Assembly (NCBI GenBank): GCA_963790205.1
Contig: CAWBNQ010000003.1
Location: forward strand, 896,001 to 960,000
Source of the DNA: Nitrospirota bacterium
GTDB lineage: Bacteria > Nitrospirota > UBA9217
DNA length: 64,000 nucleotides
Reading direction: 5' to 3'
Part shown: one piece after another, positions 47,969 to 63,174 of the stretch
Position numbering within the stretch: the stretch's first letter is position 1
Layout: each line of letters opens with the position of its first letter
Position numbers and translations under genes: made by a program
The notes under the pieces: model-generated
Seen by the model: only the letters and a program-made list of their open reading frames with translations
Database searches by the model: none
Told to the model about the DNA's origin: nothing

Positions 47969-48661
47969 TTATTTGCATTCCCACAGTGTGTACAGTTTTT
48001 CAGGGCTTCTCTCAACAACAAGCACAAGAAAGCCGCCGTCACGATGGCGGGCAACGAGCACGCCGTAATCCTGCAGTTTCGCGGCACTGGCCAGTTTTGC
48101 AGCTGCGCTCCACACTTCATAGAGACTCTGTACTCGTTCGCTCCTCGCCCCGTCGAAGAATCCGCGAGCATCGCTTCGCAACCGGACAATATGAATATGA
48201 AGTTGGTCCTGGCTTCTTGACCCCGGCGGGTTGACCACGAGTGCGATGGCGTCCTCGTCGGCAATTCGCTTCCTGGCCGCGGCCCAGGCAATGCTCCATA
48301 TGTCTTCGGGCCGCCGCGGGTCTTCGACACCCCTGATCCGTGCGCGCGGGATAACAAGGCCGTGTACAAAGCCGGGAACACAGCCGCACATTTTCCTGTC
48401 GCGGATCACGACATAAGCAGCGGTCTCGTCCCAGACCTCCGTCGTTGCCTTGCAGTCCAGGTTCCGCGCACAGGGGCTTTCGAGTCTCGGTGCCGGGCAG
48501 TGCTCGCAATAATCTGGAGTGTTGATATCGAGGCAGTTTGAAACGATGGTGAGGAGCGCATCCCGGGATTCAGCGGCGACCGCGCTCTCCGAGAGAAATG
48601 CGGCCGCAAGCAGCAGGCCCAGGAGCACGGTCCGGGCATAACGGAGAGAAAACAAGCTCAA
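47969..48661 (-). CDS. cdh: CDP-diacylglycerol diphosphatase-family protein, exported
   Basis: Signal peptide; L.IP..RIRGVEDP and SRSQDQLHIHI motifs. Confidence 0.75.
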   Translation of the reverse strand: MSLFSLRYARTVLLGLLLAAAFLSESAVAAESRDALLTIVSNCLDINTPDYCEHCPAPRLESPCARNLDCKATTEVWDETAAYVVIRDRKMCGCVPGFVHGLVIPRARIRGVEDPRRPEDIWSIAWAAARKRIADEDAIALVVNPPGSRSQDQLHIHIVRLRSDARGFFDGARSERVQSLYEVWSAAAKLASAAKLQDYGVLVARHRDGGFLVLVVERSPEKLYTLWECK

Positions 48662-48709
48662 GAGGACCCCTCCTCATGCCTTCCGCCACATACTTTCGCA
48701 ACGCTCATA

Positions 48710-49159
48710 TTACCCCTGCATACCCAGAGACCATTCGGCTGTCATAGGATCAGCGGGATGATTGAAATTATCCAGATAGAAACTATCATTCATCATTGCG
48801 CAGACGATCCAGCCCAGACTGTCCTCTGTGTTCGTGATCTTGAAGGGGCCGGGACCGTATGCTCCACCGACAAACCGACCATCCTGAGTAAGTACCAGCG
48901 TAAGCGCGGACCATTTAGGGACCCCGTTAAACACCGTACGAGGATCACCCGCAGGCCCCCAATAGGGACGGCTTTTCCCGGGCGACCACTGACCGTGAAT
49001 GCTGATGGTTCTACAAGTGCCGAAAAAGATCGTACCTACATAGGTTAACCCCGTGGGATCCAATATCTTCGTATCAAGGATGATCTTAGGTGATGTGCCC
49101 AATAGTTTTGTTATATCAAGATTGGGCGCATTCAGTTCAAGTGCCAGCTTCGCAGTCAT
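48710..49159 (-). CDS. Hypothetical protein
   Basis: AGGGGG RBS; 149-aa beta-rich ORF. Confidence 0.6.
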   Translation of the reverse strand: MTAKLALELNAPNLDITKLLGTSPKIILDTKILDPTGLTYVGTIFFGTCRTISIHGQWSPGKSRPYWGPAGDPRTVFNGVPKWSALTLVLTQDGRFVGGAYGPGPFKITNTEDSLGWIVCAMMNDSFYLDNFNHPADPMTAEWSLGMQG

Positions 49160-49262
49160 TTATACCCCCTTTGTTTTGCCGGTTTTTCGCCCCTTTGGAA
49201 AAAACATGCAGTAACCAGCCGTTCAAGGTTTGACCTATTGTTCTGCATGCGGTTGTACAGTT

Positions 49263-49955
49263 TCAAATCGGCCCTGTCCCGCTGCGATCGAACCTGCCGT
49301 GCTTGAGGAAATGCGCGACCTGCCTCATCACCAGCGGGTCTTTCATGATAAACGTGTGGGTGTTGGGGACGATGATGAAGTCGCGCATCTCCGGCAGCAT
49401 GGCGCTCTTCACCGAAACCATGCCGTCGTCAGGCCCGTCCAGGAAAGCGGAGAACACAAGATTGATGCTGAAATTGCCCGCGATCACGCCGACGTCGATC
49501 CCGACCGGCTTCAAGCGATTGACCACGGACCCCGGCCCCCTGCCGATCTCCTGGCCGGCCGGGCCGGTGACCCAACGGTAGAGGGGGACCCGCATGAGCA
49601 GGTCGACGAGCTCGCTTCCCTGGTTCGGCGGGGAGAGCATCACGAGCCTGCTGCCCGCTGGCATTGAATGCCGCTGCAGGTACTGACGGACGATAAGGCC
49701 GCCCAGGGAGTGGCCGACGAAATGGATCTTGCCCGCTCCCTGCGCTTCGCAGCCTTGTACGGCGCGCGCAAGATGCGTTTCGGCGATCGTCTCGATCGTT
49801 TTGGTTGTTGAGGGATAGGCAAGGTTGACGGTCGAATAGCCGAGGCTTTGCAGATGCTGCTCAAGCCCGCGCAGGGACTGTCTGAAGCGGCCCAGGCCAT
49901 GGAGGAGGACCACCCATTCACCCGCGTCATCCATTGTTTGATTTTCTATGTTCAT
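49263..49955 (-). CDS. Alpha/beta hydrolase (lipase/esterase-like)
   Basis: LLHGLG, GHSLGG, PPNQGS, DGMV, HTFIM. Confidence 0.88.
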   Translation of the reverse strand: MNIENQTMDDAGEWVVLLHGLGRFRQSLRGLEQHLQSLGYSTVNLAYPSTTKTIETIAETHLARAVQGCEAQGAGKIHFVGHSLGGLIVRQYLQRHSMPAGSRLVMLSPPNQGSELVDLLMRVPLYRWVTGPAGQEIGRGPGSVVNRLKPVGIDVGVIAGNFSINLVFSAFLDGPDDGMVSVKSAMLPEMRDFIIVPNTHTFIMKDPLVMRQVAHFLKHGRFDRSGTGPI

Positions 49956-50151
49956 CTCGACGGTTTCTTTGAAAAAAATCCTGTTTGACGCTTTGGCCGC
50001 GATAAATACTATTATACAATATCACAACAGGCAAGAGCATGTTTGGAACAGGTTCTTGGACTATGGACGCTCGGTACGGAACCGGAATTGCGTCCACTAT
50101 GTTATACTGGAAATAAAGCAATGAACATTCCATACCACAGGGAGGTGACCG

Positions 50152-50535
50152 ATGGGCTATCTGGAGGGCTTTAACTGGGACGCGATCAAGAAAGACCTGC
50201 AGCAGGGGCTGGAAAAAGGCATGGCGGCAGTGAAGCAAGGCGCCGTCGTGGTGCAGAAGAAAGCCGGGGAACTCACGGAAGAAGGAAAACGGCAGTACAA
50301 GGTATTAAGACTCAAAGCAAGGATCCACGAGGCGATTGCCGACCTCGGCGCAAAGACCTATGTGCTCATGAGCGGTGCCAAAGCCAAAAACCCCGCTCTC
50401 GATGCAGGGGTGAAGGAGATCATGGTCCGGATCCAGGACCTTGAAGCGCAGCTCGGGGTGCTCGAAGGCAAGAGCAGTGAGGGGCGCCCTAAAGCTCGCC
50501 CCAAGGCACGCACGAAAGCACATAAAAAGAAATGA
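50152..50535 (+). CDS. Hypothetical coiled-coil protein with a basic tail
   Basis: GGAGGTGA RBS; amphipathic helices; KARPKARTKAHKKK tail. Confidence 0.75.
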   Translation: MGYLEGFNWDAIKKDLQQGLEKGMAAVKQGAVVVQKKAGELTEEGKRQYKVLRLKARIHEAIADLGAKTYVLMSGAKAKNPALDAGVKEIMVRIQDLEAQLGVLEGKSSEGRPKARPKARTKAHKKK

Positions 50536-50617
50536 AACAGAGAAAATATCCGCCCCAGAGTCCGCCACGGGTGCTTTTTTCCATTCGGGATCTTGGCTGA
50601 TGCCGGCTGGGACGGCC

Positions 50618-50893
50618 TCATATTTTCGGAACTTTCGTGTACGTCCTGCAGTCAGGATATCCCGAGCACCTGAAACGCAAAATCGTCCCTTCATCCTTGT
50701 ATAGATGCATGATGCTGCCGCAGGCCGGGCATAACGGCCTCTTCTCGACTTTCGTGCGACGGCCCTCGGTAAACTGCTTCCCGCATAGCAAGCAGAGATA
50801 GCGTTGCTTACCTGTCCGTGCAAACCCGTCGCGATATACGTTACTCGACTCACACGCCGGGCACTGTACGTTATTGATCGTGTCTTTAGGCAT
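50618..50893 (-). CDS. Double zinc-ribbon protein (IS1 InsA-like ribbon plus topoisomerase-like C4 ribbon)
   Basis: CPACES..YRDG...GKQRYLCLLCGKQF, then CPACG.IM...FRCSGYPDC. Confidence 0.8.
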   Translation of the reverse strand: MPKDTINNVQCPACESSNVYRDGFARTGKQRYLCLLCGKQFTEGRRTKVEKRPLCPACGSIMHLYKDEGTILRFRCSGYPDCRTYTKVPKI

Positions 50894-51123
50894 TACTCAA
50901 GATTATAGTGGGCACTCTTCCTGAAAATTGCGCACGAATGTATCGCTGCCGACGGTGTGTCTGCAACAGAGAATAACGGTTGCCAGCCATGATGGTCGCA
51001 GTTCACTTTTACTGCAACCGATCTTTTACTCCCGGCTCGCCACGATAGGCGGAAATGCTTTCACTTTGGCATCTTTTTTCAGCTCATCCTGCATCTCCCG
51101 ACAGGACCGGCTAACTCCTTCCC

Positions 51124-51336
51124 CTAGGAATTACTTCGTAATATTTTTGCCAGGAATATCGGACATTGATCGTAGTTCTCGGTGCGGCAATACGCGGCGT
51201 CTTGTCGCTTGCTGGGCGCCAATGTCATGACGGACGCCGAGCAATTCAAGCTATGCTCGCTCCTGTAGGGACAAAGTGAGGTGCAATCGCCCGGCGATGG
51301 AACTTTAGTTGCAGTCATTGAGCGAGAAATGTACAT
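51124..51336 (-). CDS. Small Cys-rich hypothetical protein
   Basis: GAGAGG RBS; C..CPY..CSAS..YC.TENYDQCPIFLAK; own promoter array upstream. Confidence 0.65.
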   Translation of the reverse strand: MYISRSMTATKVPSPGDCTSLCPYRSEHSLNCSASVMTLAPSKRQDAAYCRTENYDQCPIFLAKILRSNS

Positions 51337-51359
51337 AGTTACCTCTCAAAGTTGCATGA

Positions 51360-51414
51360 AGCATACTTGATGAATGTTACGTGAGTATTACAATGAACGT
51401 TAAATTCCGTTTAA
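51360..51414 (-). promoter_or_regulatory. Pho-box-like array plus -10 box (small Cys-rich gene)
   Basis: GTTAC 51376, ATTAC 51387, GTTAA 51399 (12-bp step), TTTAA 51410; -10 TATGCT at 51365-51360. Confidence 0.65.
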
Positions 51415-51446
51415 AAAAAGTTGTAGGTAAGTAATGAAAGAGAAGA

Positions 51447-51475
51447 TAGACTTTGCATTAACACGCGACTACAAT
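51447..51475 (+). promoter_or_regulatory. Putative sigma70 promoter of the ATPase operon
   Basis: TAGACT-17 bp-TACAAT, then AAAGGAGGT RBS. Confidence 0.5.
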
Positions 51476-51501
51476 TGAGTACATAGAAAGGAGGTCACAC
51501 C

Positions 51502-51810
51502 ATGGCACTTTTGGACAATGGATTGAAAGGAAATCTTGCTACCGGTCTGGCGATCGGCATCGGTGCCGCAATACTGGCACCCGTAGTCATTCCTCTGTTT
51601 GCCAATATCGCGAAGCCGTTGGCAAAAGCCGCAATCAAAGGAGGCATGCAGCTGTATGAACGCGGAAAGGAAACATTTGCAGAGGTCGCTGAAATTACGG
51701 AAGATATTGTGGCTGAAGCAAAAGCGGAATTAGCTGAGTCGACAGCGGCAGCGGCGGCAGTTGCGGCAGCACCGGCTGCAGACTCCGAAGGCGGGTCAGT
51801 CACGTCATGA
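51502..51810 (+). CDS. DUF5132-like / FezA-like small membrane protein
   Basis: GLAIGIG GxxxG helix, KPLAKAAIKGG, acidic helix EITEDIVAEAKAE. Confidence 0.78.
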   Translation: MALLDNGLKGNLATGLAIGIGAAILAPVVIPLFANIAKPLAKAAIKGGMQLYERGKETFAEVAEITEDIVAEAKAELAESTAAAAAVAAAPAADSEGGSVTS

Positions 51811-52292
51811 TCCCGCCCGCTGTCATTGCCCATGCTTCAGCCGGGAGATTACGGATCCGGATCTCCTCACAAAAAGGGAACCTTGCAGCACTTAAGTCCG
51901 GGGGAGATCAGCTTGCCGCGTGTCCGGGGATTCTCTCCATTGAGGTGAACCCGGGTACGGGGAGCATACTTGTACTTCACCAAACGACGGTGCAAGTGAT
52001 TGCGGAGTATGCGCGGTCCAGGAGCCTTTTTTCGTTGGAGGACCAAAGGATATCAAGGGTGCCGTCTGCGGAGCTTCGCCGGGACCTTGGCGGTACGTTC
52101 AAGAGCATTGATCGGCAGATACAGAACCTCACGGGTGGAGATTTGGACCTAGGCGGGTTTGCAGTCGGAGCCTTGGTTATAGCGGGTAGTTTGCAAATCT
52201 TGTCAGGGACTGCAGGCCCAATACCGTGGTCAGCAGCGTACTGGTACGCATACAATCTCTACTCAAAAACAAAGGATGGGGAGAAAAAATGA
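51807..52292 (+). CDS. HMA2-domain (FezC-like) membrane protein
   Basis: HASAGRLRIRI, GILSIEVNPGTGSILV, then TGGDLDL, TM helix, PWSAAYWYA. Confidence 0.78.
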   Translation: MIPPAVIAHASAGRLRIRISSQKGNLAALKSGGDQLAACPGILSIEVNPGTGSILVLHQTTVQVIAEYARSRSLFSLEDQRISRVPSAELRRDLGGTFKSIDRQIQNLTGGDLDLGGFAVGALVIAGSLQILSGTAGPIPWSAAYWYAYNLYSKTKDGEKK

Positions 52293-52582
52293 CATAAGCA
52301 GCACCGAGGGAAGTAGGAACCCTTCCAGTCCGTGTCCGCCTTGTCAGCAACAAAAGTTTCTCGTTATAGAAAAAATCTGAATTTCTGAAAAACCCGTTTC
52401 CAGCATTATCACAACAAAAAAGTACGATAACGCTTTTGGGAACCTTGACAGGAGTAATGCTTATGAGCGACCGCAAACAAAAGGCACCGACGAAGAAGAC
52501 CGTGAAGCGCAGCTCGCGCGACTCGTCGTCGGAATCGGATCTGAAAATCACAACTACGAGGACTACAAAAGGAGGAGCAGAC

Positions 52583-53191
52583 ATGACAAACGCAGAAACC
52601 ATAGGTGGGGAAACGTCAGCCCAAGACATCGGCAAAGCAGGATCTGCCGTGAAAGAGGGCGTCGTGAGCAGTCTCAAAGGGATCAACGAGATCGAAGCGG
52701 AGATCGTCAGCCTCGTCAGGAACACCGTATCCAACACGCTTCGCGCAACAGGCTCAGTGGCCGATGAAGCAGTCGGCATCACGAAGGATGTGGTCAAGGG
52801 AGCCATTCAGGCCACGGAAGAGGTCGGCACCGGCCTCATTTTGAGCACCAAGAGCGTGGCAAAAGGGGTGGTCATGGGCGTGAGCGATGTTGGCGGCGAC
52901 ATTATTTCCGTGGCAGGCCAGACCGTCAAGGGCGCAGTCAAGGGTGCGGCCGAGGTCGGCGCGGATGTCGCCATGGTTGCCCGGCGGGCCGTGGACGGCG
53001 TGATCGAGGCCACCAAGGAAGTCGGGGGGAATGCCGAAGAGGTGGCGAAAGTCGCCGTCACTGGCGCAATTGAGGCGGCATCTGTAATCGGCAACACGGC
53101 GGTCAAGGCGGTCAAGGACATGCTGGTTGGAGTTGTTGAAGGAGTCAAAGAGGTCGCGAGCAGCGCGTTGCCGAAGACGAAAACGACTTAA
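52583..53191 (+). CDS. 22-residue amphipathic repeat protein
   Basis: AAAGGAGGAG RBS before ATG 52583; at least 7 tandem 22-mers such as GDIISVAGQTVKGAVKGAAEVG. Confidence 0.82.
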   Translation: MTNAETIGGETSAQDIGKAGSAVKEGVVSSLKGINEIEAEIVSLVRNTVSNTLRATGSVADEAVGITKDVVKGAIQATEEVGTGLILSTKSVAKGVVMGVSDVGGDIISVAGQTVKGAVKGAAEVGADVAMVARRAVDGVIEATKEVGGNAEEVAKVAVTGAIEAASVIGNTAVKAVKDMLVGVVEGVKEVASSALPKTKTT

Positions 53192-53246
53192 TCCGTCATC
53201 GCCTGGCTTGTGACCAGCTTCCATTTCAGAAGGGGAGGTATCGTAC

Positions 53247-56200
53247 GTGGTCCAGGCCGTTCATACGTCGGTAAAAGGACGGGCCCGTTATAAGGTAGAG
53301 GGTCTGTACCGCTCGGAGCAGTTGAAACAGCAGATCGAGCAGAATCTTGCGCAGCACAAGTGGATCCTGAGCGTTTCGATCAATACCCTCACGGGAAGCG
53401 TTCTCGTGCTGTTCGATTCGCAGAACGGCAACCATGCATCGGCTGTAGCCTCCCTGCTGAATGCCGCGGTGGAACGTACCAACGGCGGGCCGGTCCAAGG
53501 AAAGGGAGACCCTTTCCCTTCTGTGTCGCAGGGGGAAGGAACGGTTATGGTACGCACCGTGCGCACCGTCGCCTCTCCTCTCCCCACTCCCGCTGGCAAG
53601 GAAGTGCCGAGCCTCCGGACCGTTCGCAAGCAAGTTTCCCGTGCCGATGACCAGCAGGGAGAAGCATGGCATTGCATGTCAAAGGGAGATGTGCTTCAGA
53701 GATGGGGTACGTCAGCGTCCAACGGTTTATCCGAAGAAGCAGCCCGCCTCTTGTTCATTCAGTATGGTCCCAACCTTCTGCCTGAGTCCGTTCCCCGCTC
53801 CGGCTGGAGCATGTTCTTCGATCAGTTCAAGTCCCTTCCCGTAGCCCTCCTCGGCGTTGCGGCCGGCATTTCCGTTGCTACCGGCGGATTTGCGGATGCC
53901 GTCGTGATCATGGGGGTCGTCGTCACCAACGCCTCAATAGGATATTATACCGAGAGCCAGTCGGAAAAGATCATCCACGGATTGAAGAGCCTCGTGCAGC
54001 CGACCTCAACCGTGATCCGCGACGGGGTCATGACGACCATCGATGCCAAGGTGGTCGTGCCCGGAGATCTAATCGTGCTGAGACCGGGAAGCTATGTCGC
54101 GGCGGACGCCCGTCTCATCGAGGCAAAATATCTGAGCATCGATGAATCGGCGCTCACCGGCGAGAGCATGCCGGCGATGAAAACCACCGATGAACTGCAG
54201 GTACCGGACATCCTCCTTGCCGACCGCACTAACATGGTCTATATGGGCACCCTGGTCACCGGGGGACAGGGCCTCGCCGTCGCGGTGGCGACAGGACGCT
54301 TTACCGAGGTCGGAAAGATCCAGACCATGGTGGGAGAGGCGCGGCCGCCCGAGACGCCCCTGGAACGGCAGATGGACCACCTGGGGGTCCAGTTGGTTTA
54401 TATCACCTGCGCCGTATGCGGCATCGTGTTCATCGTAGGCATCCTCCGCGGTTATGGTTTTCTCCAGATGCTGAAGACCTCCATTGCCCTTGCCGTAGCC
54501 GCCGTGCCCGAGGGGCTTCCGACCGTTACGACGACGACCCTCGCGCTCGGCATCAAGCGCATGCGCGGTCTGAACGTGCTCATCCGCCACCTTGACGCGG
54601 TCGAAACGCTCGGGTCGGTCGAAACCATCTGTCTTGACAAGACCGGCACGATCACTATGAACAAGATGTCGGTGGTCCAGATGCATGCCGGCATGCGCCG
54701 TCTCGATGTTGTCGATGGCAGGATCTTGGCGGAAGGAAAAAATATAAACCCCTATACGAGCGAGGACGTCCTCCGTCTGCTCCATTTGTCCGTGCTCTGT
54801 AATGAATCGATGGTATCGGGACAGGAAGGCGACTACGTTGTGGAAGGGTCATCAACGGAAAACGCCCTGGTGAACCTCGCGCTCACCGCCGGCGTGGATG
54901 TCAATTCGCTTCGCGCGCAGCACCCCATCGTGAAGATGAACCACCGATCGGAAGACCGGCATTATATGAACACCGTACACCGCTCGAACGACCAACAGCG
55001 GCTAATGGCTCTCAAGGGGAGTCCTTCCGATGTGCTGTCACTCTGCAAATGGTACGTCAACGACGGCCGGCAACTGGAGCTTGACGACGATGCCCGCGCG
55101 GTCTTCTACGCAGAAAATGAACGGATGGCCGGTGAAGCGCTCCGCGTGCTGGCCATGGCGTACGCCGTGACCAACGGGGACACCCTGCACAGCGACGGGA
55201 TCATTCAGCAGGGACTCGTCTGGGTCGGCCTCGTCGGCATGGCGGATGTGGTCAGGAGCGGCGTCAAGAATCTCATCAACACGTTCCACCGGGCCGGGAT
55301 CGATACCGTTATGATCACCGGTGACCAGAGCCCCACTGCCTATGCGATCGGCAAGGAGCTCAATCTGAGCAAGGGCGAGGAACTGGAGATCCTGGACTCC
55401 GCCAACCTTAGCCGGCTTGAGCCCGAGGTCATGAAGGCGCTTGCCGGGCGTGTCCATGTCTTCGCCCGCGTGAGCCCGGCCAACAAGCTCCAGATCGTCC
55501 AGGCGCTCCAGTCCGCAGGAAAGGTCATCGGTATGACCGGCGACGGCATCAACGATGGACCGGCGCTCAAAGCTGCCGATATCGGGATCGCCCTGGGACA
55601 CACGGGGACCGACGTGGCGCGGGAGGTAGCGGACGTGGTCCTGGAAGACGACAACCTCGAGACCATGATCGTGGCCATCAGTCAGGGGCGGACGATCTAC
55701 AATAATTTACGAAAATCGGTCCGCTACATGCTTTCGAAGAACACGAGCGAGATCATGATCATGTTCACGGCTCTTGCCGCCGGCATGGGGCAGCCGTTCA
55801 ACGTCATGCAGCTTCTCTGGATCAACATGATCTCGGACATCTTCCCGGGCCTTGCCCTTGCCCAGGAACCGCCCGAGCCGGATGTGCTCCTGCGGCCTCC
55901 CCGCGACCCCGAGGAACCGCTCATCAAGACCGCGGACTTTAAAAGGCTCCTCTTCGAGGCTTCCACTATCTCGGCGGGGACGCTGGCGGCGTACGGCTAC
56001 GGCGTTCTGCGCTACGGGCAGGGGCCCCAGGCCAGCACCATGGCTTTCACGAACTTTGTTACAGCAGGACTCCTGCATGCCATCAGCCATCGTTCCGAGA
56101 CCCACAGCATCTTTGACGCTGACCGGCTCGCACCGAACAACTATCTCACCGTGGCTCTGGCAGGCTCGTTGGGGTTGCAATCTCTTACCCTGGTCGTCCC

Positions 56201-56393
56201 GGGCCTCCGGAGCTTCCTGGGAATGAGCCCGCTGAACCCCTTCGACCTGGCAGTTTCGATCGGGACCGCTGTCGCTCCTTTGCTCATCAACGAGGCGACA
56301 AAAAAGATTGCTGCTCCGCCGTTGGTGCTGAATGGCAGTTCATCGGCCCCGATTTCGATATTGAACGGTAATCACGTTGCTGCAGTCACTTGA
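53247..56393 (+). CDS. P2A-type cation-transporting ATPase with an N-terminal HMA2-like domain
   Basis: VHTSVKGRARYKV..NTLTGSVLV N-domain; TGES, VPEGL, DKTGT, KGSP, TGD, GDGINDGPALK, SKNTSE, WINMISD. Confidence 0.9.
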   Translation: MVQAVHTSVKGRARYKVEGLYRSEQLKQQIEQNLAQHKWILSVSINTLTGSVLVLFDSQNGNHASAVASLLNAAVERTNGGPVQGKGDPFPSVSQGEGTVMVRTVRTVASPLPTPAGKEVPSLRTVRKQVSRADDQQGEAWHCMSKGDVLQRWGTSASNGLSEEAARLLFIQYGPNLLPESVPRSGWSMFFDQFKSLPVALLGVAAGISVATGGFADAVVIMGVVVTNASIGYYTESQSEKIIHGLKSLVQPTSTVIRDGVMTTIDAKVVVPGDLIVLRPGSYVAADARLIEAKYLSIDESALTGESMPAMKTTDELQVPDILLADRTNMVYMGTLVTGGQGLAVAVATGRFTEVGKIQTMVGEARPPETPLERQMDHLGVQLVYITCAVCGIVFIVGILRGYGFLQMLKTSIALAVAAVPEGLPTVTTTTLALGIKRMRGLNVLIRHLDAVETLGSVETICLDKTGTITMNKMSVVQMHAGMRRLDVVDGRILAEGKNINPYTSEDVLRLLHLSVLCNESMVSGQEGDYVVEGSSTENALVNLALTAGVDVNSLRAQHPIVKMNHRSEDRHYMNTVHRSNDQQRLMALKGSPSDVLSLCKWYVNDGRQLELDDDARAVFYAENERMAGEALRVLAMAYAVTNGDTLHSDGIIQQGLVWVGLVGMADVVRSGVKNLINTFHRAGIDTVMITGDQSPTAYAIGKELNLSKGEELEILDSANLSRLEPEVMKALAGRVHVFARVSPANKLQIVQALQSAGKVIGMTGDGINDGPALKAADIGIALGHTGTDVAREVADVVLEDDNLETMIVAISQGRTIYNNLRKSVRYMLSKNTSEIMIMFTALAAGMGQPFNVMQLLWINMISDIFPGLALAQEPPEPDVLLRPPRDPEEPLIKTADFKRLLFEASTISAGTLAAYGYGVLRYGQGPQASTMAFTNFVTAGLLHAISHRSETHSIFDADRLAPNNYLTVALAGSLGLQSLTLVVPGLRSFLGMSPLNPFDLAVSIGTAVAPLLINEATKKIAAPPLVLNGSSSAPISILNGNHVAAVT

Positions 56394-56420
56394 ACAGACA
56401 CCGTGCATGGAGAAGATTAA

Positions 56421-57620
56421 ATGAAAAAAGACTTCATGTTCACCTCGGAATCGGTGACCGAAGGCCATCCTGACAAGCTCTGCGATATCATCAGCGATGC
56501 CATCGTCGATCATGTCCTGCAGAAGGACCCGTATGCGAATATCATAGCCGAGTGCGCCGTTTCCACTGCCATTGTCTTCATCGCAGCGCGGTTCGCGACC
56601 TCGGCCAGGGTCGATTATGCCAATGTCGCCCGGCAGGTCATCAGCCAGGTCGACTATGAGGAGCGGGCCTTTAATGCAAAGACCTGCAGCGTCATAACCA
56701 GCCTCACCGAGGTACCGTTGGACGGCCGTCCGCTGGTTGATGAACGGACCCTGAGCGAGGAGGAGATCGAACGCATTCCCGTGCGGAACCTGGTGACGGT
56801 GTTCGGGTTCGCCTGCGATCAGACCGCGGCCTTTATGCCGCTTCCCGTCTGGCTCGCCCACCGTCTTGCAAGGAAACTCGTGGCCGTGCGGCTCCAGAAA
56901 ACGCTCGATTATCTTGCGCCCGACGGCAAGACCCAGGTCGGCATAGAATATTGTGACGGCAGACCGTCGCGTGTTCACAGCATCACCATTATTGCAAGCC
57001 AGAAGCGGACCGCAGCCAAAGGCGGGCCCGATGCCCAACGGCTCCAGGCCGATATCCGGGAGACAGTGCTGAACCCTGTTTTTCAGGACGAGGAGATCAA
57101 ACCGGATGCGCACACCCGGATCTTCGTCAATCCCGACGGACCTTTCATCGGCGGCGGTCCTGCCGTACACTCAGGGTTGACCGGGAGAAAGAACGCAATC
57201 GATACTTACGGCGAATACTCCCGCCATAGCGGGGCAGCCCTGAGCGGGAAAGATCCTTCGAGGATAGACCGGATCGGCGCCTATGCTGCCCGGTATGCTG
57301 CAAAGAATATCATCGCAGCCGGACTTGCAACCTCCTGCGAGGTGCAGCTCAGCTATTCCATTGGATTTTCGCGGCCGGTGAGCATCCAGATAGAGACCTT
57401 CGGGACCGGCAAAGTATCTGATGAAAGAATTGCCGATATCATAGAAAATAATTTCGACTTTCGGCCGGCCGGTATCATACGCCATTTCAACCTTCGATGT
57501 CTCCCTTCTCAGATCAAAGGCGGTTTTTATCGCAAACTAGCGGCGTACGGTCATGTCGGAAGAATGGACATCGGCTTGCCCTGGGAATTGACAGACAAGG
57601 CGCATCTCCTGAAAGGGTGA
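56421..57620 (+). CDS. metK: Divergent methionine adenosyltransferase (MetK) paralogue
   Basis: ESVTEGHPDK, DGKTQV, GLTGRK, SGKDPS.IDR, AAYGH; GAGDQG motif absent, so the function may differ. Confidence 0.8.
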   Translation: MKKDFMFTSESVTEGHPDKLCDIISDAIVDHVLQKDPYANIIAECAVSTAIVFIAARFATSARVDYANVARQVISQVDYEERAFNAKTCSVITSLTEVPLDGRPLVDERTLSEEEIERIPVRNLVTVFGFACDQTAAFMPLPVWLAHRLARKLVAVRLQKTLDYLAPDGKTQVGIEYCDGRPSRVHSITIIASQKRTAAKGGPDAQRLQADIRETVLNPVFQDEEIKPDAHTRIFVNPDGPFIGGGPAVHSGLTGRKNAIDTYGEYSRHSGAALSGKDPSRIDRIGAYAARYAAKNIIAAGLATSCEVQLSYSIGFSRPVSIQIETFGTGKVSDERIADIIENNFDFRPAGIIRHFNLRCLPSQIKGGFYRKLAAYGHVGRMDIGLPWELTDKAHLLKG

Positions 57621-57647
57621 GAAAGGCAACGGAAGGGTCGGCGAACC

Positions 57648-58556
57648 ATGCATGAGACAGAGGAAAAGCACGTAAAAGGCCAGACGCTCGTTCTTGTTGT
57701 AACAATAGCCTATTTTTTCGTTGAATTGATCGGGGGGTTCTATTATCACAGCATCGCCCTCGTGACTGATGCGTCGTTCATGGCCGTCAATATCTCGGGG
57801 CAGGTCATCGCACTATGGGTGACCAGGCTTGCCCGCAGACAGCCGGACAAGGTCAATACCTTCGGGTACGAGCGCGCGAAAGTGCTGTCTGGCCTGTTCA
57901 ACGGGGTCCTGGTCGGCTTCATCCTGTTCTATGTTTTCACGGAAGCTTTCCAGAAGATTCTGCACCCTCAGCCCATTGAAGCGGATAAGGTTCTGGTGAT
58001 AGCCGTCCTGGGCCTCGCTGCGAACGCCTTCGGTCTCGTACAACTGTACCGGTACGCAAAGGACGTGAACATCAGAGGGGCGCTGCTCCTGCTCCTGAAT
58101 GATACCCTGGGTTCGGTCGGTGTCATTGGTTCTGCCATCATCATACGTTATACCCATCTTTATTTTGTGGACCCGCTTGCCGGCATCCTGATCGGCTGCC
58201 TTGCCGCGTATCCGACTTATTTTTTGATCAGGGACAGCATAAAGATCCTGATGGAGGGGACTCCTGCCAGAATCGATGTCGATGACGTCGCAGGATTTCT
58301 GCATCAATCGTTCCCCCAAATACATCTTGTCAAGGATATGCATATCTGGGGTCTTTCACCGGAGAAGGTTATCCTCGTGGCAAGAATCAGGACGAATGGA
58401 GCGGGATATGACCGGGATACCATAAAACTGATGAAGAACATGCTGCGGGAAAAATTCGGCTTATTTGACATTTACCTAGAGGGATACGAAACGCGGCAAC
58501 ACGAAGCAGCAACGGTGGCGCACGATGTGCTCACACCGAACTATCAAAAGGACTGA
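57648..58556 (+). CDS. Cation diffusion facilitator (CzcD/ZitB-like) with an atypical metal site
   Basis: TFGYERA, EAFQKI.HP, NIRGA, DPL, ILMEGTP, DMHIW. Confidence 0.85.
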   Translation: MHETEEKHVKGQTLVLVVTIAYFFVELIGGFYYHSIALVTDASFMAVNISGQVIALWVTRLARRQPDKVNTFGYERAKVLSGLFNGVLVGFILFYVFTEAFQKILHPQPIEADKVLVIAVLGLAANAFGLVQLYRYAKDVNIRGALLLLLNDTLGSVGVIGSAIIIRYTHLYFVDPLAGILIGCLAAYPTYFLIRDSIKILMEGTPARIDVDDVAGFLHQSFPQIHLVKDMHIWGLSPEKVILVARIRTNGAGYDRDTIKLMKNMLREKFGLFDIYLEGYETRQHEAATVAHDVLTPNYQKD

Positions 58557-58612
58557 AGTCAATTATAGTCCTATTTGAGAGAAGCCCCGGATTAGGAAGG
58601 GGGGAGCTAAAA

Positions 58613-58873
58613 ATGAACAAACGCACTCTGCAGGACATTGAGACGGGACCACGTCATCACGAGGTCGCGGTCGAAAACCTTGCGCAAAGCCTGAACCGGC
58701 CAAAAGAGCGTATAACGACCCTTTACCAGATAGTGTTGAGACACTATTCACGGACGGCACGGATCAAATTCTTTCTCTCTGCCCTCGTTTCGAAGCGGGT
58801 CAAAGACCTGCTGCGGGATAATACAACGACGGCTGATATAGAAAGCCGGAGGGGCCATTCGCGGGAGTTGTGA
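58613..58873 (+). CDS. Small helical protein (DUF3562-like)
   Basis: GGGGGAG RBS; ARIKFFLSALVSKRVKDLL motif. Confidence 0.6.
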   Translation: MNKRTLQDIETGPRHHEVAVENLAQSLNRPKERITTLYQIVLRHYSRTARIKFFLSALVSKRVKDLLRDNTTTADIESRRGHSREL

Positions 58874-58946
58874 ACAGAATTGCTTCCTGTTGCGGTTCTA
58901 TTATTTGAGATTATATCGGGGTTTGCAGATCCACAAGGAGAAGCCA

Positions 58947-59249
58947 ATGCAGGGATGCGGTACGCGCGAGTACAGGAATATCAGTAAAACGAGGATCGAT
59001 AAACTGCTTACTGAGGCAGTCTCGCAGGGGGCCGTTATAACGGGATCTAACCCATGGGACATCGAAACGCGTCTGCACGGAATAGTATTACGAGGAAGGT
59101 GGGATGAGACCGAAAAGACCTTGGCAATCAGCGTAGTAGATGTTAAGTGGTATGTACCGTGCGAGACCGTATGGAGCAATATCGACGTCATGCTGCATGA
59201 TTTCATCGAGCAAAAGAAGAATATGGAAGGCGTAATGGATTTTGGATGA
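58947..59249 (+). CDS. Hypothetical protein
   Basis: AAGGAG RBS before ATG 58947; 100 aa. Confidence 0.65.
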   Translation: MQGCGTREYRNISKTRIDKLLTEAVSQGAVITGSNPWDIETRLHGIVLRGRWDETEKTLAISVVDVKWYVPCETVWSNIDVMLHDFIEQKKNMEGVMDFG

Positions 59250-59455
59250 CCGACGATTGGTCCCGGCGAATCAAAATTTACTCAAAAGGGAAACAAAATT
59301 CAGACGCGATGGCCTAAAAAATGAACCGGCCACTTGGGGATTCCTCTAAGGCACTAGGAAACATGAAGAATGATGAAATCAACTCGATAAAAGAGAACGG
59401 AGCAGCGCAGATTTGACGCATGCAGGAAAAGAGGATAGACGGAGGGGACGTTGTA

Positions 59456-59827
59456 TTAAAGCAATAACGTCAGAAATGACAAGCCCGTACCTGAAAGGGC
59501 AGTGTCAATGAAAGCTCCTGATACCGCTTTGGCTACCACGTTGAATGCCGTAGTCGTCGCCTGATGAATCACTTGATCGTTGGTGACTGTTTTGTCGGGA
59601 TGATAAAAACCTCCCCTCGCAAGGGCGCTCAGGATGTCCTGATGATGAATCTCTGCCGGGTTGTAATGGATCAGAAGGCTGCCCGTCGTCGTGTTGAATT
59701 CGGCGGTTCCGATACCATGACCCATATCAACGAGGGCCTTTCGAACCTCATAGTGGACCGGGCTGTTTTTGAACAAGGGATTTTTTATCCGCAGTCTTCC
59801 CGGCACATTATGAACATAGCTTTTCAT
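59456..59827 (-). CDS. HMA2-domain (FezC-like) protein with a hydrophobic C-terminus
   Basis: YVHNVPGRLRIK, NTTTGSLLIHY; AGGAGG RBS. Confidence 0.82.
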   Translation of the reverse strand: MKSYVHNVPGRLRIKNPLFKNSPVHYEVRKALVDMGHGIGTAEFNTTTGSLLIHYNPAEIHHQDILSALARGGFYHPDKTVTNDQVIHQATTTAFNVVAKAVSGAFIDTALSGTGLSFLTLLL

Positions 59828-60116
59828 GAGATGAAACCTCCTTCTTGAACGGGATTTTTACATACGATTTACAGTCAGGATATTCCGAGCACCTGAATCG
59901 TAACCCTATTTTTTCATGCATGTAAAGGTGCATCTTGAGGCCGCAGATGGGACAGGTTGGACGATTCCTCAATTCATGCCTCGTAAAGCCGAGAACAAAC
60001 TGTCTTCCGCACAAAACGCATCTGAGGCGCTGCTTTCCAGTTTTCACATGACCGTATTTATAAACTGCTTCAGAAGCGCACACCGGACACTTGAGATTGC
60101 GTATTTTCTCCGTCAT
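59808..60116 (-). CDS. Double zinc-ribbon protein, paralogue of 50618..50893
   Basis: CPVCAS..YKYG..TGKQRLRCVLCGRQF, then CPICG.KM...FRCSEYPDC. Confidence 0.8.
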   Translation of the reverse strand: MTEKIRNLKCPVCASEAVYKYGHVKTGKQRLRCVLCGRQFVLGFTRHELRNRPTCPICGLKMHLYMHEKIGLRFRCSEYPDCKSYVKIPFKKEVSSHEKLCS

Positions 60117-60143
60117 TATCAAGTTCCTCAATTCTTTCTCAGA

Positions 60144-60197
60144 ATGATAGAGGAGCCACATGACATATATGTTACGGAAATATTACATTTCGGTTAA
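60144..60197 (-). promoter_or_regulatory. Pho-box-like array plus -10 box (zinc ribbon-HMA2 unit)
   Basis: ATGAC 60160, GTTAC 60171, ATTAC 60182, GTTAA 60193; -10 TATCAT at 60149-60144. Confidence 0.75.
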
Positions 60198-60322
60198 ATG
60201 TTTTCAGGTTTCTGAGCAGGTCTTTATGAAGTCAATATCAATGGGTATCCTATTTTTCAAGAGCATTGGGTCGATGATGCGGGTGCGAAGACATTGAAAA
60301 GAATGAGAAACCGTGAATTGTA

Positions 60323-61585
60323 TCACATTTTTGACCTGCTCTGGATCAAGTAGGCATAATAGGTAGCGGCGTACGTCGGGGTGCGTTCGAGCGTTTCGAA
60401 GTCCACACGGTAGAGCCCGAACCGGGCGTCCAGCCCCTGGAGCCATTCGTAGTTGTCGATCAAGGTCCAGTAGAAATATCCCCTCACATCGAGCCCGTCA
60501 CGGATGCATTTCTCGACGATATCCACGTGCTTCTTCATGTATTTCACTTTTTCCTCGGTATCATGCGTGGCAATCCCGTTCTCGGTTATCATGAGGGGGA
60601 GGTTGAGCCGTGACGCGTACCGGACGACCTTTTCCAGTCCGCGCGGATGGATCTCCCATCCCATTTTGGTCAGACCGTGACCGTCCACGTCCGCGTACCG
60701 GATCTCGACGCCCATTTTCTTGAACGGATTGAACCGGAGGTGGATGCGCGTATAGTAATTGATGCCGAAAAAGTCGAGTTTGTTCTTGATGGGCACCTCG
60801 ATCTCCACGGGCTTCGAGAAGGGGAACTTGACGATGAAGACCCCGGTCTGGAAAGCATTAATGATCGAATGATTATAAAAGTAGTTTGCCGTCTTTTTCA
60901 GGAGGCGGTCCAGGGGGTTCCATCTTTTCCACGGCGCAAAAGCGGACATGTTATGCGCGAGGCTCACCTGGGCGTCGGGAACATAGCGATGGATGATGTC
61001 GTATGCTTTCCCGTGGCAGGTGAAGATGTTTTTGAGGGCCATGAGCGAGCGGGGGACGTCCCTGAGGCCGGGAGGCGTGCAGCCTTCCAGATATCCGCCG
61101 AGCAGGATGACGTAGGGCTCGTTGAACGTGAGCCAGTAGCGTACCCCTTTGAGGGAGAAGACCAGCATCTCCGCAAAGCGGAGAAATTTTTCGATCGACG
61201 CTGTCCGGTGCCAGGGAGAACGCTCCATGAACCAGCGGGGATGGGTGAAGTGGTGGAGGGTGAGCATCGGCTCTATATGGTAGCTCCGCAGGATGTCGAT
61301 GATCTCCTGGTAATGCGCAATGGCCTCGTGGTCCCAGGTGTCTTCCTGCGGCTGGATCCTGCTCCACTCGATGGAAAAACGGTAGGAGTTGACCCCCAGC
61401 TCCTTCAGGAGCTTGAGGTCCTCGCGGAACAGGCGGTAGTGGTCCGTTATCTCCGGCTTATTGCCTATCAACGGGTCCCAGGTCGCCCAGTCCGCATGAA
61501 GAGAGCCTTCGAGTTGAAAGGCAGATGTTGCTACGCCCCACTGAAAATCTTCGGGAAAGACCTTTTTCTTATTCCGCTCCTTCAT
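60323..61585 (-). CDS. Glycoside hydrolase family 1 (beta-glucosidase-like)
   Basis: WGVATSAFQLEG, YRFSIEWSRI, TFNEP, ITENG, WTLIDNYEW, RFGL. Confidence 0.93.
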   Translation of the reverse strand: MKERNKKKVFPEDFQWGVATSAFQLEGSLHADWATWDPLIGNKPEITDHYRLFREDLKLLKELGVNSYRFSIEWSRIQPQEDTWDHEAIAHYQEIIDILRSYHIEPMLTLHHFTHPRWFMERSPWHRTASIEKFLRFAEMLVFSLKGVRYWLTFNEPYVILLGGYLEGCTPPGLRDVPRSLMALKNIFTCHGKAYDIIHRYVPDAQVSLAHNMSAFAPWKRWNPLDRLLKKTANYFYNHSIINAFQTGVFIVKFPFSKPVEIEVPIKNKLDFFGINYYTRIHLRFNPFKKMGVEIRYADVDGHGLTKMGWEIHPRGLEKVVRYASRLNLPLMITENGIATHDTEEKVKYMKKHVDIVEKCIRDGLDVRGYFYWTLIDNYEWLQGLDARFGLYRVDFETLERTPTYAATYYAYLIQSRSKM

Positions 61586-61608
61586 GAAGTCTCTCTGTTC
61601 TCCCGTTC

Positions 61609-61713
61609 CTATTTCCAGTGTATTACCATGAAAAGAAGCCCCGCCATCAAAACCACGAGCAGGAGTATCTCTTCGCTTTTTTTTAAGTTGTTCTTATTCA
61701 TGCTGTTATCCAT
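61609..61713 (-). CDS. Putative 34-aa single-pass membrane protein
   Basis: MDNSMNKNNLKKSEEILLLVVLMAGLLFMVIHWK; GAGG RBS; overlaps the psiE stop and fills the gap to the GH1 gene. Confidence 0.5.
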   Translation of the reverse strand: MDNSMNKNNLKKSEEILLLVVLMAGLLFMVIHWK

Positions 61714-62131
61714 GTTTTGCCTCTTCCGTCTCTAAGAATTTTTCCGGTGAAAATACGACCGCGAGCGTCCTGAGCACTCCGATCACGAGAATCAGCGTTG
61801 CAAGCGCGATGATCATTTTCGCCTCCAGGCTGTGCTGGTAGAGCCCGATCATGATCTCGCGGAGTACAAAGACCAAGGCGGCATCGGTAATGAACGTTAT
61901 TTTAAGCCGGTGCACGGTAAAGTACTCTATGACGCTCCGAAGCAGTTCTATGACGATGAACATCGAAAGGATGTTGGTCACCATCATGTCGAAGGCCGCC
62001 GCGATGGTCTGGCTCCCGAAAACAGCGCGCAGGTCAAGCAGGACCCGCGCGATCCCCATCATCAGGGCGATGATCACGATCGGGATCATGAACTTGATCA
62101 TGCTGTCGACGATCCGGGTAAAGTATTTCAT
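61706..62131 (-). CDS. psiE: Phosphate-starvation-inducible PsiE-family membrane protein
   Basis: 4 TMs; FIVIELLRSVIEYF, ITDAALVFVLREIM. Confidence 0.85.
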   Translation of the reverse strand: MKYFTRIVDSMIKFMIPIVIIALMMGIARVLLDLRAVFGSQTIAAAFDMMVTNILSMFIVIELLRSVIEYFTVHRLKITFITDAALVFVLREIMIGLYQHSLEAKMIIALATLILVIGVLRTLAVVFSPEKFLETEEAKHG

Positions 62132-62198
62132 GTCCTTTTGCCCTTCGTAATCGTGAAAAGACGTTGCGCAATTCCTTCGCTTACCCTGTGTGAGTCAT

Positions 62199-62252
62199 AT
62201 ACTGTCACGGTTTTATTACGCGCATGTTACAATTGAGTTAAAATTTCATGAC
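62199..62252 (-). promoter_or_regulatory. Pho-box-like array (psiE operon)
   Basis: GTCAC 62204, ATTAC 62215, GTTAC 62226, GTTAA 62237, ATGAC 62248 at an 11-bp period; -10 box degenerate. Confidence 0.75.
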
Positions 62253-62347
62253 ATGCGGCCTTTTCATTTGCATTGCGACATCTTTATGTTATTGTATGCG
62301 CATACAGTGACCTGCACTTTAAGACTGCATATTGCGGGAGACAAACA

Positions 62348-63061
62348 ATGAAGATGGCGATATTCGGGGATATTCATGGAAACATTGAGGCCCTCAAGGC
62401 TGCGTACAGTGAGGCGCTTCGCGTCAAGGCGGATAAGATTTATCACTTGGGGGACGTGGGCGGGTATGCCCCGTTCGTGAACGAGGTCGTTGATTTTCTT
62501 GTTGAGCACGGCATCGAGGGCGTTCAGGGAAATTACGACGAAGCAGTGGCGAAGGACCGCGAACACTGCGGGTGCAAATATGAAGACCCGGTGCAGGCAG
62601 AGATGGCGCAGCTGTCCTTCGAGTGGACAAAAAAGAACGCATCGGTGAAAAGTAAAGAATACATGAAAAAACTGCCTTCTGAGATTTCACTCACCTGCAG
62701 CGGGAAAAAAGTTAAGCTCTTTCACGCAACGCCGAATAAGAACAATCTCTACTGGTATGAGGAACGGCCGGAGAAGTTTTTCAAAGAGATGACGGAAAAA
62801 ACCGACGCCGATGTTTTGATCTACGGGCACACTCATAAGCCTTATCGAAAGGACATCGACGGGAAGGTATTCATCAATGCCGGCAGCGTGGGCAAGCCGA
62901 AAGACGGCGATCCGAGGGCGTGCCTCGCCGTTGTGGAAGTAACATTCGGGTCAGTAACCACGGACTTTATCCGCGTGCAGTACGACGTGGAAAGAACAGC
63001 CGCCGCGATCATCGAAAGCGGTCTGCCGCCTTATTTTGCGGAGCAGTTGAAAAAGGCCTGA
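62348..63061 (+). CDS. Metallophosphoesterase (YfcE/calcineurin-like)
   Basis: GDIHGN, LGDVG, GNYD, GHTHKP, NAGSVGKPKDGDPRA; GGGAG RBS before ATG 62348. Confidence 0.9.
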   Translation: MKMAIFGDIHGNIEALKAAYSEALRVKADKIYHLGDVGGYAPFVNEVVDFLVEHGIEGVQGNYDEAVAKDREHCGCKYEDPVQAEMAQLSFEWTKKNASVKSKEYMKKLPSEISLTCSGKKVKLFHATPNKNNLYWYEERPEKFFKEMTEKTDADVLIYGHTHKPYRKDIDGKVFINAGSVGKPKDGDPRACLAVVEVTFGSVTTDFIRVQYDVERTAAAIIESGLPPYFAEQLKKA

Positions 63062-63174
63062 AAAAGGCCTGACCAAAAAGAGACGTTCAGTGTCAAATTG
63101 TCCGTGTCATCGCCCTGGAGATCAATAGAATGCGGAGTGCGGAGTTGAATTCAGAAGAAAGAATTAAGAACTCA

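Follow-up and report, generated by a model that had tools for sequence, protein, structure and literature searches.

A P2-type ATPase operon with ferrosome-like scaffold proteins and a MetK paralogue in a phosphate-starvation island of a Nitrospirota bacterium

Ferrosome (fez) clusters encode the GxxxG proteins FezA and FezE, the P1B-6 ATPase FezB with its D[Y/F]SCA and HNxxT motifs, FezC and further R-rich proteins; it is typical of fez that one cluster holds several CoBaHMA proteins, and ferrosomes fill once iron-starved cells regain iron (bioRxiv 10.1101/2020.01.10.902569, available part of the text). PacL (DUF1490, related to DUF6110) has one membrane segment with a Gly motif, followed by Glu/Ala repeats that bind the ATPase N-domain, and it clusters P1B pumps in the mycobacterial plasma membrane into 'effluxosomes', according to the accessible sections of two reports (10.1101/2021.10.01.462712, PMC13460109); such systems are described as PacL/ATPase pairs. 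Microcystis aeruginosa PCC 7806 carries two DUF5132 genes and two CoBaHMA genes on the flanks of ccyA and a Ca/H exchanger (10.1101/2024.07.07.602159), and the HMA_2 domain of Pfam is the CoBaHMA domain (10.1101/2024.07.07.602159; PMC8890360), again as given in the available portions of these sources. Here, an operon at positions 51502-59249 of a 64,000-nucleotide stretch of DNA from a Nitrospirota bacterium is compared with these systems. The whole stretch, called the window, covers positions 896001-960000 of contig C3 (CAWBNQ010000003.1) of assembly GCA_963790205.1, a genome of 98.3% completeness.

The operon encodes a P2-type pump, scaffold proteins of ferrosome kind and a paralogue of MetK, the S-adenosylmethionine (SAM) synthetase. 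A scaffolded P2 pump with a MetK partner that probably does not make SAM, tied to phosphate starvation, is well supported. An earlier note on this DNA had described a co-oriented gene set, and all eight open reading frames (ORFs) were found where it had placed them, on the plus strand:

51502..51810, plus strand: DUF5132 protein, 102 residues (Pfam E 1.9e-14)
51807..52292, plus strand: CoBaHMA (HMA_2) protein with a C-terminal hydrophobic segment, 161 residues (HMA_2 E 2.3e-13)
52583..53191, plus strand: 22-residue-repeat protein, 202 residues counted from the ATG at 52583, or 40 more if the ATG at 52463 further upstream is used
53247..56393, plus strand: P2-type ATPase, 1048 residues, with HMA_2 at residues 4-60 and all P2 domains (Pfam)
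56421..57620, plus strand: MetK paralogue, 399 residues, with three MetK domains (Pfam)
57648..58556, plus strand: cation diffusion facilitator (CDF)-family transporter (Cation_efflux), accessory, without both transport-site His ligands
58613..58873, plus strand: DUF3562 protein (Pfam), 86 residues, accessory
58947..59249, plus strand: 100-residue protein with no Pfam family, present in close relatives only

Scaffold proteins and their described relatives

The DUF5132 protein has GxxxG in one hydrophobic segment, followed by an acidic Glu/Ala helix with a net charge of -6 over residues 52-80. Stand-ins for the ferrosome proteins were chosen by published FezB motifs and comprise 13 pumps and their small neighbours, which are not the D. 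magneticus proteins. In hhalign comparisons, DUF5132 (47 rows) matched the FezA-like proteins (6 rows) with P 86.9% and E 4e-6 and the FezE-like proteins (2 rows) with P 88%, while the pump N-domain (49 rows) matched the FezB N-domain (12 rows) with P 97.1% and E 6.5e-11. Among the controls, 12 unrelated small-protein families stayed below 0.4%, and 40 column shuffles per pair reached at most 0.74% and 8.1%. These values (P 87-97% against controls below 0.4%) bear out the homology of the small GxxxG protein and the pump N-domain to Fez-type parts that the earlier note had proposed. The DUF5132 protein is a homologue of FezA/FezE-like scaffolds and, at a greater distance, of PacL-like ones.

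The R-rich/CoBaHMA domain is likewise shared with FezB-type pumps, HMA_2 being found on the pump, the 51807 protein and a stand-alone protein at 59456 (P 97-99%). All three FezB-type pumps scanned match HMA_2 below its cut-off (two with the FezB motif, one divergent), and two FezA-like neighbours of such pumps match DUF6110. The motifs H..GR.R and N..TGS.L, claimed earlier as common to the 51807 protein and the pump N-terminus, were seen in both. Across 43 pump N-domains G11, R12 and R14 are invariant and H6 occurs in at least 90%; these domains have no CxxC, a His in strand beta-0 and basic residues in strand beta-1, as in the CoBaHMA definition found in the available text of PMC8890360. FezC has an HMA domain and two membrane helices; the 51807 protein, with one segment above hydropathy 1.6, resembles this plan in a comparison of architecture only. 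All four HMA_2 matches of the host genome lie within 12 kb, inside the window, and the single DUF5132 match of the genome lies among these four genes. The fourth CoBaHMA frame (47514-47771, minus strand, 87 codons) has an HMA_2 match that starts 5' of the first common start codon; it is either truncated or uses another start codon. A 209-residue ORF (46797-47426) that follows it has relatives in 8 other loci.

The operon shares with fez clusters a homologous GxxxG scaffold, a homologous R-rich/CoBaHMA domain carried by the pump as well as by membrane-bound and soluble partners, a centre formed by one P-type ATPase, and neighbours linked to nutrient starvation. It differs in that its pump is a P2, ten-helix Ca-type enzyme without D[Y/F]SCA or HNxxT, its neighbours are phosphate rather than iron genes, and it adds the MetK paralogue and the 22-mer repeat protein. 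HNxxT occurs in none of the P-type ORFs listed for the host genome, and no Feo or Fur/DtxR iron neighbours were found among 49 ORFs scanned, 44 of them from the window; the named recurrent neighbours of the family loci are phosphate and calcium genes. The operon is not a ferrosome, because its pump forms a distinct P2 branch and is not P1B-6: in place of the FezB motifs it has PEGL and a P2 C-terminus, and it branches apart from FezB-type pumps.

P1B pumps were also seen near related operons. In three loci (L024, 3024-5300; L132, 3759-5963; L137, 12021-14279) HMA_2-type P1B pumps with [A/S]CPCAT, which we label FezH-like, adjoin the P2 operon, divergently in L024 and L137; the same pump type accompanies FezB-motif pumps in L130 and L134.

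Like the PacL-Ctp systems, the operon places the gene of a single-pass scaffold, which has a Gly motif and a Glu/Ala helix, before that of a P-type ATPase whose N-terminus carries an HMA-type domain. The scaffold here falls in Pfam DUF5132 only, not DUF1490, and has no His-rich metal-binding tail; its partner pump is P2 rather than P1B, and several extra genes are present. The Atlas lists clusters of DUF6110 (0.89) and DUF1490 (0.88) behind DUF5132, as leads only. A search for DUF6110 in 81 Bacillota genomes gave zero matches and was uninformative.

This shared plan of one membrane segment, Gly motif and Glu/Ala stretch, as PacL is described in the available sources, gives weight to an effluxosome-like export platform in the plasma membrane. 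DUF5132 would then be a PacL-type chaperone that stabilises the pump and gathers it into clusters, the pump would export Ca2+ or Mg2+, which if retained would precipitate or compete with scarce phosphate, and the MetK paralogue would be a phosphate-status sensor or regulatory subunit. The Atlas leads point the same way, as do a CaCA exchanger in the slot of the MetK paralogue behind the pump in L026, L035 and L036 and a putative MntP manganese exporter after the operon in L001. Bacterial P2A pumps are, moreover, generally exporters. However, the CoBaHMA protein with its hydrophobic segment, the stand-alone CoBaHMA protein and the repeat protein exceed a PacL-pump pair, DUF5132 has no His-rich tail, and the host already has other P2A-type pumps for plain export. 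Such a platform is possible rather than probable, and nearly as likely as the mineral store discussed below.

In the ccyA neighbourhood, as here, DUF5132 and CoBaHMA proteins adjoin a calcium transporter. That transporter is a Ca/H exchanger and the marker gene is ccyA; the available text on it describes neither a P2 pump nor a MetK paralogue. The FezA/PacL-CoBaHMA module is a general docking device, because it is used for organelles and for efflux patches alike, and DUF5132/CoBaHMA is thus a shared docking module, not a ferrosome marker. A predicted complex of DUF5132 with the pump N-domain (score 0.19, mark 0.32) says nothing for or against docking.

Another Nitrospirota locus, L126 (G150:C60, 3268-10431), holds two DUF5132 genes, a CaCA exchanger, a fusion of CoBaHMA with DUF454 and an HMA_2 P1B-type pump whose M4 motif is unusual; this parts list equals that of the Microcystis ccyA neighbourhood. 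Magnetotactic Nitrospirota have carbonate inclusions, and the accessible part of the report on them makes no mention of 'ATPase' (10.64898/2025.12.07.689555). A MamB profile was over its cut-off in 0/151 genomes, which is uninformative on a magnetosome link.

The P2 pump and its MetK partner

The best solved relatives of the pump are SPCA1 (E 1.6e-150), LMCA1 and SERCA. Like these P2A Ca2+-ATPases it has DKTGT, TGES, TGD and GDGxND, together with M4 E422 (PEGL), M5 K831-N832-x-x-E835 and M6 N860-x-x-S863-D864; the SERCA-style site labels are those that we take to apply, the actual alignment having been made to SPCA1. The residues E422, D464, N832, E835, N860 and D864 are kept in 49/49 full-length family pumps. 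The operon pump differs from P2A Ca2+-ATPases as a separate branch, by its CoBaHMA fusion, by an Arg in place of the adenine-stacking Phe, and by Gln or Gly in M8.

A tree of 55 rows was built in quick mode, with 31 family rows picked for spread and the root not resolved. In it, 16 other P2 pumps stand behind a branch of length 0.92 (SH-aLRT 99) and 8 P1B pumps behind one with a support of 100, and since these branches part both groups from it, the pump family is distinct. The earlier statement that the pump is not P1B agrees with its domains, its motifs and its place in the tree. In the adenine pocket of the N domain, Arg is found in 54/54 family rows, against Phe or Leu in other P2 rows, and the family has a conserved M8 His.

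The M8 Glu position had been described as Gly. This is true of the window's clade, in which G941 aligns with the M8 acid of SPCA1, but most of the family has Gln there (33 of 49 pumps, with Gly in 14, Glu in 1 and the position missing in 1). The 14 Gly rows are exactly the 14 rows with a Lys in M5, and because they form one clade both changes count as one event. A Lys that corresponds to this M5 Lys by motif spacing, rather than by alignment, blocks one cation site in the gastric H+,K+-ATPase (PMC6706254, available part). Read from these residues, the pump would be active with one complete Ca2+-type site, the second site being incomplete.

These same residues are compatible with another cation (Na+, H+/K+, Mg2+ or Mn2+) or with an inward pump that would play a part in the physiology of phosphate starvation, for example in lipid remodelling or in supplying phosphatases with metal. 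The M5 Lys and M8 Gly of the window's clade, the family's M8 His and adenine-pocket Arg, and CorA neighbours in 3/61 loci speak for it. Nevertheless, the M4, M5 and M6 ligands are of Ca2+-pump type in every one of the 49 pumps, Ca-pump models score highest and CaCA neighbours recur, so that a different cation or direction is quite unlikely. The pump gene of L121 (G036:C3, 13069-16035) lies in four pieces in different frames; it is either a broken gene or an assembly error.

The MetK-like gene follows the pump in 39/49 full-length family loci, with a gap of under 100 bases in 34 of these 39, and DUF5132 and the MetK paralogue occur together in 23 of 151 Nitrospirota genomes; the conserved co-occurrence that the earlier note had proposed to look for therefore exists for the MetK-like gene. 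The paralogue appears to serve the pump, because it adjoins it in this way while the pump also occurs without it. The host's ordinary metK, on contig C8, is 42% identical to it. The paralogue keeps the MetK fold (model TM-score 0.83) and passes the family cut-off of TIGR01034 (371 against 309).

For comparison of residues, 45 operon copies were mapped on the host's ordinary metK. H14 is the catalytic acid of MetK, and E55, Q98 and D238 are its methionine ligands (PMC1282579, PMC8727953, available parts). The catalytic His of the GHPD motif is kept, as are residues that we take to be triphosphate and metal ligands: H14, D16, D163, K245, K265 and D271 are present in 45/45 copies, R244 in 44/45, and E42 and K165 in 43/45. 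The methionine ligands are replaced. D238H and K269R occur in 45/45 copies and E55R in 41/45, Q98 is variable, the GAGDQG signature is lost, and the adenine-contact positions R229 and F230 are variable. In the window's copy the methionine pocket is replaced by R57, H250 and R281; residues 250-272 of the model have low confidence, and the pocket geometry is not fixed by it.

The same changes were found outside the operon family. Among the best 120 of 2473 matches to a Nostocales-like copy, E55R, D238H and K269R are present in 120/120, and the carriers include Anabaena variabilis ATCC 29413, Cylindrospermum stagnale PCC 7417, 'Nostoc azollae' and Chlorogloeopsis fritschii. Of the 150 highest-ranking representatives (50% identity), 89 read E/D/K and 23 have His at 238, the rest being partial or mixed; named members of this set include a gammaproteobacterium and an Acetobacteraceae genome. 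Plasmid records returned ordinary-metK annotations only, at no more than 49% identity. Since D238H and K269R are invariant in the 45 operon copies and in the 120 cyanobacterial ones, the paralogue is probably not a SAM synthetase. A decaying gene was ruled out, the new pocket residues being invariant. An acidic pocket turned basic beside a kept triphosphate site would point to a nucleophile that is an oxyanion or water, or else to the binding of (tri)phosphate. In one case, a Microvirga plasmid locus (L080, 4728-6339) without the paralogue, two CYTH-domain genes and a phnM gene precede the cluster; CYTH enzymes act on triphosphates.

The retained residues could instead mean that the paralogue acts as an adenosyl-transferase whose product is a new small molecule, either a signal or a lipid precursor, with the pump a co-regulated neighbour and no mineral or membrane platform. 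This reading has in its favour that the His14 equivalent and D163 never vary, that the pocket's new residues match the old ones in conservation, and that genes of phosphorus-free-lipid type lie in the same island. Against it stand the short distance to the pump stop in 34/39 loci, pumps that occur without the paralogue, and the variable adenine contacts R229 and F230; it is held to be improbable.

Phosphate setting and distribution

The phosphate-starvation setting proposed in the earlier note is supported. The island (window 21256-44627 and 61706-63061) holds pstSCAB-phoU, a purple-acid-phosphatase-like gene, psiE and a porin-like gene, as well as PHP and metallophosphoesterase genes and a GNAT/acyltransferase and glycosyltransferase set that may make phosphorus-free lipids. 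Pho-like triple 11-bp repeats precede pstS and psiE, among others. In its loose pattern the repeat has 11 matches in the genome, 10 of them at 7 window sites (25943-62241), and in its strict pattern 10 genome matches, compared with 0-2 in 10 shuffles. On the pstS strand it resembles the three-repeat cyanobacterial Pho box CTTAACCT (PMC1906773, available part); SAM synthetase is not among the cyanobacterial Pho-regulon predictions in the same part of that source. A PhoB-like gene 13 kb outside the window (C3, 973126-973797) reaches 276 bits, below the cut-off of 296. The features around the operon are as follows:

50618..50893, minus strand: second double zinc-ribbon gene, on the divergent side of the operon
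51124..51336, minus strand: 70-residue Cys-rich protein, divergent from the operon, behind a Pho-like box
51376..51403, minus strand: Pho-box-like triple 11-bp direct repeat, oriented toward the divergent gene 51124-51336, 40 bases away
51424..51439, plus strand: conserved 16-base element just 5' of the -35 box, with 27 further sites in related loci
51447..51475, plus strand: sigma-70-like promoter (-35/-10, 17-base spacer), its position kept in relatives
59456..59827, minus strand: stand-alone CoBaHMA protein, 123 residues, convergent on the operon, with a relative in 37/61 family loci
59808..60161, minus strand: double zinc-ribbon protein, preceding the stand-alone CoBaHMA gene
60171..60197, minus strand: Pho-box-like triple repeat, oriented toward the unit of zinc-ribbon and stand-alone CoBaHMA genes

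The repeat at 51376..51403 lies upstream of the operon's first gene at a distance of 99 bases. In the family loci, the commonest box orientation is toward the zinc-ribbon and stand-alone CoBaHMA unit, and the box faces DUF5132 directly in L119, L141 and L144. The 51424 element is unique in the genome (best match 33.7 bits, next 21.8) and is probably the binding site of a dedicated regulator. The two paralogous double zinc-ribbon genes, with InsA-type and Top1-type ribbons, flank the operon, and such genes accompany it in 22/61 loci; their products are candidate regulators of the element. Rfam gave zero matches in 44000-64000 of the window.

To compare neighbourhoods, loci of at least 9 kb were used, 13 family and 8 control loci below this length being dropped. 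Phosphate genes were found in 16/48 family loci and 1/34 loci of other P2 pumps, triple boxes in 25/48 and 2/34, and CaCA exchangers in 7/48 and 0/34; the control loci were not lineage-matched, and a bias toward the family also arises from the query proteins, most of which were taken from family loci or the window.

Neither ppk1 nor ppk2, the polyphosphate kinase (PPK) genes, was found in the host genome, with controls detected in 8/14 genomes each. Among Nitrospirota genomes, ppk1 is present in 1/24 with the MetK paralogue and 22/127 without it, a lineage-structured difference and not an independent test; it is rare across the host family (1/36). These results weaken the polyphosphate version of the compartment offered in the earlier note. 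A pump that loads cations into a classical, acidocalcisome-like polyphosphate granule would suit the phosphate-starvation setting, and Chlorogloeopsis fritschii PCC 9212, which has the paralogue, reportedly contains polyphosphate inclusions rich in Ca. The kinase results argue against it, because neither gene was found in the host, and of all the alternatives it is given the least credence.

The gene arrangement goes far beyond what chance would give. Its core is found again in Nitrospirota, Desulfobacterota and Planctomycetota, with a reduced form in Nostocales-like loci. Among 79 pump loci compared, the closest (L001-L036 and L042), labelled Nitrospirota, hold parts of the same set. In the 151 Nitrospirota genomes, DUF5132 occurs in 25 and the MetK paralogue in 24. 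Twenty regions round DUF5132 matches hold a P2 pump in 16 cases (one in pieces, one cut by the region end) and a P1B-type pump in one; in the other three the stretch contains no pump. Of 151 genomes in a second sample, from the phylum of G151, 20 have HMA_2, and the 20 regions taken hold P2 family pumps in 12 and FezB-motif pumps in 6. Across 61 family loci, many cut by contig ends, DUF5132 is present in 51, the MetK paralogue in 46, the CoBaHMA protein with hydrophobic segment in 45, the stand-alone CoBaHMA protein in 37, the repeat protein in 34 and the CDF in 11. The cluster is also present on the Microvirga plasmid; plasmid searches gave the full fusion there only and did not find the repeat protein. 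One soil metatranscriptome held 148 contigs of relatives, none 99% alike, which represent neither this organism nor a single transcript.

Three Nostocales-like metagenome loci have a DUF5132 fusion, pump and MetK paralogue, and the cyanobacterial gene order is taken from these three, two of them inspected gene by gene. In these loci DUF5132 is fused to the C-terminal part of the CoBaHMA protein with hydrophobic segment. A pyridoxamine-oxidase-like stress gene is divergent from the cluster in L159 (4959-5871) and L161 (5344-5787), with ChaB also in L159.

The repeat protein has a period of 22 residues (z 9.7 against 300 shuffles) and is predicted to be a soluble helical solenoid (pLDDT 82). Fold searches matched only designed helical repeats (best Foldseek E 1e-3; VIA Z 15.6, root-mean-square deviation 2.8 over 162) and no natural family. 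Its Atlas matches have no Pfam family and low recognition value. Homology to DUF5132/FezA-like proteins was ruled out (hhalign P <1%). Relatives fused to a MucR/Ros zinc-finger domain (PF05443) were seen in P0007, P0028, P0047 and P0077.

The CDF and the two small genes are accessory. The CDF is missing or broken in several close relatives and, at 11/61 loci, some of which end near the pump, it did not prove to be the regular partner that had been expected. In 10/11 aligned family copies both transport-site His are replaced (F/N and L/D), and in the eleventh the first is gone and the second kept; the host's two other CDFs keep H/D-H/D. For the last ORF, homologues favour the ATG at 58947 over the TTG at 58890, and a relationship to the polyhydroxyalkanoate (PHA)-granule-type proteins of L020 and L033 was ruled out (P 0.16%).

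Elsewhere in the window, arn-like (aminoarabinose-type) genes at 14633-17509 (minus strand) appear as overlapping ORF fragments, which suggests frameshifts or sequence errors. At 2633-10622 (minus strand), a copper-type P1B ATPase with a CPC motif lies beside an RND efflux set; it is ordinary and unrelated to the operon.

A possible calcium-phosphate store

The reading that is tentatively preferred, as possible rather than probable, is a calcium-phosphate mineral store that the scaffolded P2 pump would load. The pump, the FezA-like protein and the CoBaHMA scaffolds would assemble into a membrane patch or vesicle. The acidic DUF5132 helix would dock on the basic surfaces that the CoBaHMA domains of pump and partners present, by analogy with PacL on CtpC, and the GxxxG segments would cluster the docked proteins. 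Moving one divalent cation per ATP, the pump would load Ca2+ (or Mg2+/Mn2+) into a store probably readied during phosphate starvation, which, on the ferrosome model, would fill when phosphate returns. The MetK paralogue may bind a nucleotide triphosphate or triphosphate, its basic pocket (R57, H250, R281) taking an oxyanion or water instead of methionine, and may supply or remobilise triphosphate, diphosphate or phosphate (PPPi/PPi/Pi) at the pump without polyphosphate kinase. A store is favoured on three grounds: the parts list, with its several CoBaHMA proteins, resembles the two mineral systems more than it does PacL pairs of two genes; ferrosomes, too, fill once their element returns after a shortage; and the MetK paralogue would have a function in banking phosphate without PPK.

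Several points weigh against this store. PacL-class scaffolds, as described in the available sources, form plasma-membrane efflux clusters, not organelles, and since the same scaffold class builds mycobacterial effluxosomes its presence is no proof of an organelle. Scores of the pump stay under the curated cut-offs for SERCA (532 against 703, TIGR01116) and PMR1 (617 against 798, TIGR01522), so Ca2+ as substrate is argued from motifs only. Because C. stagnale PCC 7417 has the MetK paralogue and is marked 'no' for calcium-carbonate inclusions (PMC8890360 supplement), the module is not a carbonate-inclusion marker. The core set includes no phosphate transporter, the window's nearest box (51376) faces the divergent gene and points away from the operon, the tandem box was not found upstream of the three Nostocales-like loci, and the Nostocales-like version is reduced to three genes. 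The make-up of the control loci and query set described above counts in the same direction.

Full-text literature searches, judged in part from their result lists, found no description of the operon or of the MetK paralogue. Gaschignard et al. (2024) reportedly surveyed CoBaHMA fusions to transporters and may mention the pump.

The finding means that P1B pumps for transition metals are not the only partners of the FezA/PacL-CoBaHMA docking module, and one parts list joins the ferrosome, effluxosome and cyanobacterial calcium-inclusion literatures. It also points to a large mis-annotated enzyme family: the methionine pocket is gone from 120/120 listed proteins of the cyanobacterial set, yet any name they bear is SAM synthetase or methionine adenosyltransferase. 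Since cultured strains such as Anabaena variabilis ATCC 29413 carry the MetK copy, the placement of calcium in phosphate stress and PPK-less phosphate storage are directly testable. In its fullest form, which as a whole is unlikely, the module would use the ferrosome toolkit for a third mineral organelle of bacteria, in which calcium phosphate is stored within a membrane, a new P2 pump subfamily fills the store, a MetK-fold enzyme that makes or splits triphosphate feeds it, and phosphate is banked without PPK, its cut-down form widespread in Nostocales.

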